A DNA stretch of 64,000 bases from an uncultured archaeon (GTDB taxonomy: Archaea > Asgardarchaeota > Lokiarchaeia > Sigyniarchaeales > SOKP01), in the NCBI GenBank assembly GCA_964486045.1, contig CAZALK010000005.1, positions 190,713-254,712 on the forward strand. The letters are read 5' to 3'. Below are positions 5,496 through 64,000 of the stretch, piece after piece (position 1 is the first letter of the stretch; every line of letters begins with the position of its first letter). The notes below the pieces were generated by a model. It had not been told where the DNA came from, did no database searches, and saw only the letters and a program-made list of their open reading frames with translations. The translations under genes and the position numbers were made by a program.

Positions 5496-6320
5496 TTAAG
5501 TGAGTGTGAGAACTTCATTCATTGAGCCAGAACGAAATCCTTCTAAATCAATGGTTATATAGTTAAAACCAATTTCCTTGAATTTCTTTTTAATTAAGTT
5601 TAAATTCTCAGATTTAAATATATTTGGTAAATCAACCTGTAAAAGTTCAATACGAGCTAGACCATTCTCATGATGTCTTACTCTTAATTGTGTTAGGTTA
5701 AAAGTTTTTTTCAAAAATCTCTCTCCTTCTCTTATGCGATATAATTTTTCTTCATTTATCTCTTGACCATATGGAACTCTTGAGGAAAAACATGCCATTG
5801 AAGGTTTTGAGTGAACAGATAAGTCAAAATATTTACAAATTTCCCGAATTTCTTGTTTGTTCATATTATATTCAACATATGGCGTGAATATATCTAAATC
5901 TTTCAATGCTTGCATTCCAGGGCGGTAATCTAAGAGATCATCTGCATTTGATCCGTCTAAAATGGTTTCAAAGTTTCTTTCTTTCTTCACTTTTATGATA
6001 TCCTGATAAAGACCAGTTTTACATAAGTAACATCTATTTTCAGGATTACATTGAAATTCTTTGTCGTTTAAAGGATGACGCTCAATAATCTCATGTGGGA
6101 TATTGTGGGAGCTAGCAAATTTACTAGCTTCTTCAATTTCTTCATCAGGATAAAGGATAGATTTTTCGGTTAAAAGTAGAGTTTCTTTAGCATACCGGCT
6201 TGACAGATAAGCTAAAAGTGAACTATCAACTCCTCCAGAAAAAGCCACTAATACTTTTTTTCCACTTAAAAATGAAGTAATATCATTTAACTTCTTTTTT
6301 ACAATGTTCGATAATTCCAT
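5496..6320 (-). CDS. larE: LarE-like ATP-dependent sacrificial sulfur transferase (PP-loop)
   Basis: AFSGGVDS, RCYLCK, DYRPG, KPSMACFSSRVPYG and GFRSGSMN motifs. Confidence 0.85.
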   Translation of the reverse strand: MELSNIVKKKLNDITSFLSGKKVLVAFSGGVDSSLLAYLSSRYAKETLLLTEKSILYPDEEIEEASKFASSHNIPHEIIERHPLNDKEFQCNPENRCYLCKTGLYQDIIKVKKERNFETILDGSNADDLLDYRPGMQALKDLDIFTPYVEYNMNKQEIREICKYFDLSVHSKPSMACFSSRVPYGQEINEEKLYRIREGERFLKKTFNLTQLRVRHHENGLARIELLQVDLPNIFKSENLNLIKKKFKEIGFNYITIDLEGFRSGSMNEVLTLT

Positions 6321-53995: not shown

Positions 53996-54093
53996 ATAAA
54001 TTCAACTTTGAAAACAAACTTATTGAATTCATGTATAATAAAGCAACGGGGAGTATTTCTTTAACTTCTTTTTATGAGTATAAAGAAATGATA

Positions 54094-54192
54094 CGCAGAC
54101 AGAGGGATTCGAACCCCCGAGTGCATTCGCACACTGGCTTTCTGGGAGTATTCCCGCTCCAAGCCAGCGCCGTACCGCTAGGCAATGTCTGC
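54094..54192 (-). tRNA. tRNA-Ser(GGA) with canonical 37/38 intron (54140-54156, 17 nt)
   Basis: GCAGACA/TGTCTGC acceptor stem, CTGGC-TTGGAGA-GCCAG after splicing, long variable arm, TTCGAAT, G73. BHB is ttgg AGC ggg..ctc ccag AAA. Confidence 0.92.
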
Positions 54193-54392
54193 AAAAAATC
54201 TGATCAGATTATTTCAGTATTATTTTCAATATAAGGATTCAAAATTTTAATATTTTATCTAATGAATTTTGAAAATAAAAATCGAAAATAATTTATTTTT
54301 ACTTGAATTTACTAAGTTACTTCAAATTGATGTAATTTACTGGAAATATACTACACCAGTAACTAAACAAATAATTTGGTGACAAATTACAT

Positions 54393-63447: not shown

Positions 63448-63683
63448 GGTTTATTCACTTAATCAATATTTTTTGAAGGTTTATTTAACACTCATTTTTT
63501 CATATTATAAATATAACAGATTACATCAATAAAAAAATATTCAATAAAAAAATATTTATCTTTTTTCTTATTTAATTAGAATATAAACACAATTAAGATT
63601 AATAGCCATCGGATTAATTAATAAATAGAAAACAGTAATAATAAGAGATACTTTAGATAGCAAATTTGTGTTTCTAACAATCA

Positions 63684-63859
63684 GGGCCATTTGCTTAGCC
63701 TGGTTAACAAGGTTTTATATGCTTGGTCAACAAGCGCAGGTCTTATAAATGACCGTCGGACATACAAGAGTATAATTGTCCGAGAAAGTAAAAACCTGAG
63801 ATCCGGGGTTCAATTGATGATTGGGATTCCCTTCGTCAGAATCCACCCCCGATGGCCCA
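63684..63859 (+). tRNA. tRNA-Ile(UAU) with three non-canonical introns (63707-63731, 63749-63793, 63814-63844)
   Basis: Removing the three BHB/BHL introns gives a 75-nt cloverleaf: GGGCCAT TT GCTT AGCCTGGTTA AAGC G CAGGT CTTATAA ACCTG AGATC CGGGG TTCAAAC CCCCG ATGGCCC A, followed by a T-tract. Confidence 0.85.
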
Positions 63860-64000
63860 TTTTTTTTATTTTAAAAATTATTTTCGTGAAACATCAATTT
63901 CACGATGATTCATCAATATCAGAAAGATATTAAAAGAAAAAGGTCTAATTGACTAAATTTTAACTTTTAATTTTATTATTTTTTTAGCTTATTCTTATAT

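Follow-up and report, generated by a model that had tools for sequence, protein, structure and literature searches.

The 64,000-nucleotide stretch of DNA analysed here (the window), from an Asgard archaeon of the Loki type (Promethearchaeia), very probably contains, at 63684-63859 of its forward strand (+), a single gene for tRNA-Ile(UAU), also named tRNA-Ile3 (PMC8450103), whose predicted product reads AUA codons directly and would replace the TiaS route of AUA decoding. The gene is 176 nt long and is interrupted by three introns with BHB motifs. At the level of sequence, the presence of a real gene, far beyond what could arise by chance, can be regarded as confirmed. The parts of the locus are as follows.

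63653..63660, +: TATA-like box TTTAGATA, at -31 to -24 from the first tRNA base; putative archaeal promoter.
63684..63706, +: exon 1, with the acceptor 5′ strand GGGCCAT, U8, the D-stem 5′ strand GCTT and the D-loop part AGCCTGGTTA; conserved in orthologs.
63707..63731, +: intron 1, in the D-loop, 25 nt, predicted at 21/22; TGGT (63701-04) pairs with GTCA (63726-29).
63732..63748, +: exon 2, with the D-stem 3′ strand AAGC, G26, CAGGT and CTTATAA; the anticodon TAT is 63744-63746.
63739..63754, +: alternative hairpin, GGTC (63739-42) with GACC (63751-54), in the minimum-free-energy and alifold structures.
63749..63793, +: intron 2, in the anticodon loop, 45 nt, predicted at 38/39 by BHB geometry; 37/38 gives the same product.
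63794..63813, +: exon 3, with ACCTG, the variable region AGATC, the T-stem 5′ strand CGGGG and the T-loop part TTCAA.
63814..63844, +: intron 3, in the T-loop, 31 nt, predicted at 58/59; central helix GTTC with GAAT.
63845..63859, +: exon 4, with the T-loop part AC, CCCCG, ATGGCCC and the discriminator A at 63859; CCA is not encoded.
63860..63867, +: oligo-T terminator, eight T directly after the discriminator.

The acceptor stem is a perfect duplex of 7 bp formed by GGGCCAT (63684-90) and ATGGCCC (63852-58). The anticodon arm together with its intron occupies 63737-63798 and comprises CAGGT (63737-41), the loop CTTATAA (63742-48), 45 intron nucleotides (63749-93) and ACCTG (63794-98). Removal of the introns joins 63684-63706, 63732-63748, 63794-63813 and 63845-63859 into a product of 75 nt, which ARAGORN recognises as tRNA-Ile(tat) with a perfect cloverleaf. 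All pairs of the 7/4/5/5-bp stems are formed, the anticodon loop and the T-loop have 7 nt each and the variable region has 5 nt, so that the spliced molecule is a canonical class I cloverleaf. The encoded anticodon UAU lies between U33 and A37 in the loop CUUAUAA, and the discriminator is A73. Besides, the D-arm is nearly identical to that of tRNA-Ile(GAU) of the same genome, and A37, A38 and A73 are all present. The first-pass annotation had read the loop as CT-TAT-AA with discriminator A and had assigned the gene to isoleucine. The former claim is confirmed by the perfect spliced cloverleaf and by the conservation of the loop in orthologs, and the latter agrees with the Ile-type body, including the D-arm and the three adenines just mentioned. 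The assignment is also insensitive to small shifts of the D-loop and T-loop boundaries: in hundreds of such variants ARAGORN still reported Ile(tat) in every case.

A cloverleaf scan that allowed introns in the loops and covered the whole 5.18-Mb genome placed 63684-63859 fourth among 3753 loci. The unspliced gene gave no ARAGORN or Rfam match at the locus, even at E<=10 on 351 bases. The G+C content of the window, which spans C5:190713-254712 of the genome, is about 30%. The sole tRNA found in the window by ARAGORN and Rfam lies at 54093-54193 (-), where ARAGORN reports an undetermined, four-base anticodon (ggaa); with the intron option and a cloverleaf parse, it is read as a tRNA-Ser(GGA) whose anticodon loop contains an intron of 17 nt and whose variable arm is long.

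The intron boundaries were placed by the BHB rule, according to which each strand has a 4-bp helix followed by a 3-nt bulge, with the cut between the second and third bulge bases. The basis of this rule is the pairing of position 32 with the intron base located three nucleotides before the 3′ splice site. A 4-bp central helix with two 3-nt bulges was found for all three introns (3/3). In intron 1, BHB enumeration gave four central pairs of four, the bulges TA-A and AC-A (the hyphen marks the cut) and an inner helix CAAG/CTTG of 4 bp. The central helix of intron 2 is formed by U33-U36, TTAT (63743-46), and GTAA (63788-91), and both bulges are AA-A. Intron 3 has the bulges AA-T and CC-A and an inner helix TGATGA/TCGTCA of 6 bp; it is the only top-scoring BHB candidate in this region that leaves a 7-nt T-loop. 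An alternative T-loop motif, 63812/63846, scored equally but was rejected, as the T-loop would have 5 nt. A C/D-box guide within the introns was also rejected on inspection: all bases of the UGAUGA in the T-loop intron take part in the inner helix of the BHB, and this motif is not followed by CUGA.

The strict hBHBh′ form, with flanking outer helices, does not apply to the gene as a whole. Both flanking helices, of 6 and 3 bp, are present in the T-loop intron, but just the inner one in the D-loop intron; in the anticodon intron, a relaxed BHB, neither flanking helix is stacked directly on the central helix. The relaxed D-loop and anticodon introns need an endonuclease of broad specificity. The genome encodes the splicing endonuclease as two EndA paralogs (PF01974 over the cut-off, C7:36595-36819 and C10:137165-137410, a 202-aa ORF each), which is consistent with, but not proof of, a heterotetramer type of broad specificity that could cut relaxed motifs. 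Two-subunit enzymes of the type suggested by this pair are known to act on BHB introns of non-canonical form.

A competing ggtc/gacc hairpin had been pointed out earlier, and it is indeed present: 63739-42 can pair with 63751-54, and minimum-free-energy folding prefers this structure. The hairpin pairs positions 29-32 with the intron, competes with the anticodon stem in the precursor and would expose UAU in a loop of 8 nt. Among 45 orthologs, every one of the four pairs is retained in 41-45 genes; the changes are all one-sided and mostly lead to wobble pairs, and one pair is broken in four genes. Since this is conservation and not covariation, any role of the GGUC/GACC hairpin is speculative.

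The BLAST search with the unspliced gene as the query found an orthologous gene in 22 of the 24 other genomes of the genus, four of which gave a second match. The loop CTTATAA is invariant in all 20 full-length copies recovered in this way, and all of them carry GGTCTTATAA. An exact 20-mer spanning the 3′ strand of the D-stem, the 5′ strand of the anticodon stem, the loop and the first bases of the intron was found in 70 species-level representative genomes, almost all titled Promethearchaeota or Promethearchaeia. A 17-mer covering exon 2 (the D-stem 3′ strand, anticodon stem and loop), with one mismatch allowed, was detected in 84 of the 91 genomes of the family and, once chance matches were removed, in no other family. 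The 17-mer and 20-mer sets are selected on the anticodon loop itself, so the BLAST set alone constitutes an unbiased test of anticodon conservation. Matches of the 17-mer in two genomes of a TiaS-containing family (G046 and G093) lie inside a protein-coding gene and were discarded as chance hits; they do not show that TiaS and UAU occur together.

In 51 unique orthologs, the exons share 96.5% identity and the number of introns is two, three or four (10, 33 and 8 genes, respectively). An anticodon-arm intron was called in all 51, a D-loop intron at the site of intron 1 (after mature nucleotide 22-23) in 47, and a T-loop intron in about 20; additional introns lie at another site in the D-loop, in the variable region or in the T-loop. 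In 45 parsed genes, the intron side of the anticodon-intron central helix is GTAA in 41, ATAA in three and ATGA in one, and both bulges are AAA in every gene. The inner stem formed by 63756-62 and 63777-83 demonstrates compensatory changes (UA/AU/GC, CG/UA and GC/AU). A TATA-like A/T-rich box is located at about -33 to -24 in most of the 24 ortholog upstream flanks, and the consensus of 49 downstream flanks is T-rich from the first base.

A homolog of intron 3 occurs in one other member of the genus (locus L011, G004:C44), where GTTC/GAAC forms a perfect central helix and the first intron bases are GUGAUGA, which resembles a C box. The remaining members of the genus have an unrelated T-loop intron or none. 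This indicates repeated gain and loss at the T-loop site. Some genomes contain two copies, or a copy and a fragment, with differing intron sets, namely L005/L027 in G010, L007/L028 in G016, and those in G204, G231 and G293; true duplication, a mixture of strains or contamination of the bin may account for them. Outside the family, a tRNA-Ile(tat) gene is present in G032, a complete genome of 4.36 Mb that comes from a sister family and lacks TiaS; the only intron of this gene, 45 nt long, occupies the canonical 37/38 position. Its BHB is regular: CTTA pairs with TAGG, the outer helix is the anticodon stem and the inner helix is long. In this lineage the UAU trait extends through the family and probably through the class, and the gene has been identified in two families.

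Two alternative readings of the locus concern the gene itself. According to the first-pass annotation, the anticodon call depends on the boundaries of the middle intron. It is true that two 7-nt loops, and only two, are obtainable between the stem strands, CUUAUAA (UAU) and CUUAAAA (UAA), but every admissible boundary gives UAU. Alternative or nested splicing with a different anticodon could thus produce only UAA, that of leucine. Some room for such an outcome is left by the runs of A at both ends of the anticodon intron, because of which the sequence alone does not define the boundary, by the relaxed BHB and by the competing hairpin; direct reading of the UAA boundaries gives mismatches, while the pair 63748/63794 is the only one with four central base pairs. 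UAA is contradicted by the lack of a central helix at its boundaries and by the variable region, which has 5 nt and is not the long arm of tRNA-Leu; moreover, a separate candidate for tRNA-Leu(UAA) exists at C10:104775. The gene of the sister family, in which UAU is unambiguous, establishes the anticodon without recourse to the relaxed motif, because its BHB is canonical, and the probability of a leucine anticodon is negligible. It is also very improbable that the locus is a tRNA pseudogene full of insertions that is decaying or not expressed. This impression might arise because a gene of 75 nt is interrupted three times, once with a non-canonical BHB at the anticodon, and goes unseen by ARAGORN and Rfam, but all four stems are perfect after splicing and the exons have stayed nearly identical in the 51 distinct orthologs while the introns vary and covary. 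The TATA-like boxes of most upstream flanks and the T-run of the downstream consensus also argue against decay, as does the position of the gene as the only candidate reader of a heavily used codon; heavy interruption is the norm for the tRNA genes of these lineages (bioRxiv 10.64898/2026.10.13.758758). A functional tRNA-Ile(UAU) gene remains the preferred reading.

As estimated from 1168 long ORFs, AUA accounts for 32.4 per 1000 codons and for 33% of Ile codons and is the ninth most common codon. In 408 pairs of orthologous ORFs formed with relatives from the family, ATA codons of this genome align with ATT in 33%, with ATA in 28%, with ATC in 9% and with ATG in less than 1.4% of cases, whereas for ATG codons the partner is ATG in 70.5% and ATA in 3.3%. 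The exchange of ATA with ATT and ATC, and not with ATG, indicates that AUA means isoleucine. Since AUA is among the most used codons of this AT-rich genome, the only reader that it has belongs to the core of the translation machinery.

The genome has been assembled into 45 contigs and is estimated to be 99% complete with 7.8% contamination. It had been suggested earlier to look in it for tiaS and for tRNA-Ile(CAU); neither was found, the latter in a search that covered genes with loop introns. In the case of tiaS, no Pfam TiaS_FLD match exceeded the cut-off in the genome, while four archaeal control genomes were positive. The sole weak match, in a 645-aa frame (585 aa within locus L001), is an aconitase. 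A tblastn search of the genome with six full-length Asgard TiaS proteins found nothing better than E = 0.076 over 27 residues; the ORFs neighbouring those tiaS loci match at 1e-62, which shows that the search works. TilS was not found in the genome either. A PP-loop ATPase encoded at 5931-6257 (-) of the window (G000:C5:196643-196969, a 296-aa ORF) demonstrates a sub-threshold match to the TilS N-domain (25 bits) and is presumably a tRNA thiolation-type enzyme, not TilS. Because the assembly consists of 45 contigs with 7.8% contamination, the absence of tiaS rests on the 99% completeness together with the 91 genomes of the family.

Of 301 sampled genomes of the phylum with a completeness of 80% or more, 156 have TiaS, and its presence or absence cleanly follows the families. 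In the class, six families with 106 genomes were sampled and gave 0/91, 0/9, 0/1, 0/1, 0/2 and 0/2; five further Asgard families outside the class also have none. In the remaining large families nearly every genome has TiaS, e.g., 65/71, 24/27, 19/19 and 9/9. A targeted search for CAU tRNAs, which allowed introns anywhere in the anticodon loop and T-loop and was blind to introns in stems, gave only two credible genes, the initiator and the elongator Met. The gene at C1:583602-583726 is the initiator, as it has A1:U72 and G29-G31:C39-C41, and that at C23:44547-44665, with a GCCGG acceptor, is presumably the elongator. BLAST searches with the spliced tRNA in five TiaS-containing and five other TiaS-less Asgard genomes gave only tRNA-Ile(GAU), Ser and Arg genes, so no orthologous tRNA-Ile2(CAU) ancestor was identified.

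Two further alternatives concern the decoding of AUA. A tRNA-Ile2(CAU) hidden by introns in its stems and modified by an unrecognised enzyme might be the main AUA reader, which would make the UAU tRNA minor or redundant. The intron-aware finder is incomplete, giving about 33 tRNAs with several expected isoacceptors missing, against 29-32 found by the standard tools, and this leaves a place for a gene of this kind. Nevertheless, its probability is low, given the absence of TiaS by profile and by the full-length queries, of TilS from the genome and of TiaS from every sampled genome of the class, the result of the CAU search with loop introns at any position, and the family-wide retention of the UAU gene with near-invariant exons. 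Alternatively, AUA might be reassigned, e.g., to methionine as in many mitochondria, and the UAU tRNA would then not be an isoleucine tRNA. In principle, AUA and AUG could both be read by a UAU anticodon whose U34 is unmodified or xm5-modified; yet the ATA codons face ATT, ATC or ATA in 70% of cases and ATG so rarely that reassignment is largely refuted, and the D-arm and the anticodon loop match those of tRNA-Ile(GAU) from the same genome. There is hardly any probability left for reassignment, and direct reading of AUA as isoleucine by tRNA-Ile(UAU) is retained as the preferred interpretation.

The gene would be transcribed from the TATA-box promoter into a precursor of about 176 nt ending at the oligo-T tract. 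The archaeal splicing endonuclease would remove the three BHB introns at 21/22, 38/39 (equivalent to 37/38) and 58/59, the exact cleavage sites being predicted from the BHB geometry. A ligase would join the four exons and CCA would be added, after which the 75-nt tRNA would probably be charged by IleRS. Its UAU anticodon is expected to pair directly with AUA through U34:A and to replace the route consisting of tRNA-Ile2(CAU) and agmatidine formation by TiaS, which is missing from the genome and from the whole sampled class. It may be that U34 is kept from reading AUG by conversion to pseudouridine, as in eukaryotes, or by being left unmodified, as in Mycoplasma mobile. In yeast, Pus1 carries out the modification in an intron-dependent manner. 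In M. mobile, U34 of tRNA-Ile(UAU) is reportedly unmodified and the IleRS is said to be adapted to this. A second pseudouridine synthase of the TruA/Pus1 type was not found in the genome, and as there is only one TruA-family gene (PF01416), it has no obvious counterpart of Pus1.

It is conceivable, if rather unlikely, that the anticodon-adjacent intron is itself a functional determinant. In that case, its conserved ends, its covarying stem and the GGUC/GACC hairpin exposing U34-A35-U36 would direct an intron-dependent modification of U34 and/or U36, e.g., to pseudouridine, which would block the reading of AUG, as in the eukaryotic pre-tRNA-Ile(UAU). If this were true, eukaryotes would have inherited their mode of AUA decoding, a UAU tRNA whose intron is obligatory, from an Asgard ancestor that lacked TiaS.

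Decoders of this kind are already known in archaea. Nanoarchaeum equitans and Candidatus Korarchaeum cryptofilum have tRNA-Ile(UAU) without TiaS or tRNA-Ile2(CAU) (PMC6000648, PMC8450103), and three ARMAN lineages have tRNA-Ile(UAU), the ARMAN-2 precursor being spliced in vitro by its own endonuclease (PMC3239211). The gene described here resembles them in its encoded UAU, in the absence of TiaS and probably in that of tRNA-Ile2(CAU), which the search allowing loop introns did not find; the intron adjoining the anticodon is shared with the Korarchaeum and ARMAN-2 genes. Unlike in these organisms, it belongs to the Asgard archaea (Promethearchaeota), resides in an AT-rich 5-Mb genome where AUA is a major codon, and has three introns instead of one. 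Furthermore, Nanoarchaeum, Korarchaeum and ARMAN are isolated reduced genomes, whereas here the trait is common to a whole family and probably to a class. The rarity of UAU in prokaryotes, as claimed in the first-pass annotation, holds for the literature, in which 2 of 167 archaeal genomes have it (PMC6000648), but not for this group. The view of UAU as the eukaryotic solution is also too narrow in light of Nanoarchaeum, Korarchaeum, ARMAN and some bacteria (PMC3239211, PMC8450103). In the literature searched, no paper was found that reports tRNA-Ile3(UAU) for Asgard archaea or links TiaS or agmatidine to Asgard archaea in this sense.

Eukaryotic cytosolic tRNA-Ile(UAU) has pseudouridine at positions 34 and 36 (PMC8879553). 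The similarities of the present gene to it include a UAU anticodon dedicated to AUA, an intron adjacent to the anticodon and pairing between anticodon and intron in the precursor. The differences are the lack of a second TruA-family gene of the Pus1 type and the mode of intron recognition: the eukaryotic endonuclease measures the distance from the tRNA body, and the introns here carry BHB motifs. Several bacteria without TilS use tRNA-Ile(UAU) too (PMC3575796, PMC8450103), and in M. mobile and others of them, as here, the enzyme modifying C34 has been lost and a UAU isoacceptor compensates for it; the M. mobile gene differs in being bacterial and free of introns.

The tRNA genes of Asgard archaea are heavily interrupted, and their D-arm introns are missed by annotators (bioRxiv 10.64898/2026.10.13.758758, October 2026); the preprint makes no mention of Ile, UAU, AUA or TiaS. 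The gene of the window is similar to the multi-intron tRNA genes of Asgard archaea and Thermoproteales (bioRxiv 10.64898/2026.10.13.758758; PMC4090602) in having several BHB introns at canonical and non-canonical sites and, as in those groups, introns are rapidly gained and lost among close relatives. The phylum and the higher number of introns are new; this kind of AUA decoder is already known.

The results point to a second route of AUA decoding in Asgard archaea, in which a large clade without TiaS and agmatidine uses a UAU tRNA with an anticodon-adjacent intron. A decoding solution like that of eukaryotes is thereby located in their closest archaeal relatives, which raises the question how U34 is prevented from reading AUG; cultured Lokiarchaeia exist. 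The clean split of the phylum into TiaS-containing and TiaS-less families can also be used as a phylogenetic character.

For annotation, the consequences are practical. Standard finders give 29-32 tRNA genes in this 99%-complete genome, ARAGORN with the intron option gives 29 and the intron-aware finder about 33. Most of the tRNA genes have one to three introns, located in the D-loop, anticodon loop, variable region or T-loop. As the standard tools miss an essential gene entirely, annotations will wrongly report that there is no AUA decoder. Some ARAGORN calls had to be rejected as mis-spliced: 'Ile(aat)' at C26:7489 is really tRNA-Asp(GTC), and 'Ser(aga)' at C1:583602 is really the initiator Met. 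The intron mode also produced spurious 'Pyl' and 'Stop' calls. Further loci with interrupted or mis-spliced tRNA genes include C1:126761, C1:527548 and C2:36311. Contig C40 (about 5.6 kb) is GC-rich, compared with 30% G+C for the genome, and gave many spurious stem-loop matches; it looks like contamination, in keeping with the 7.8% estimate.
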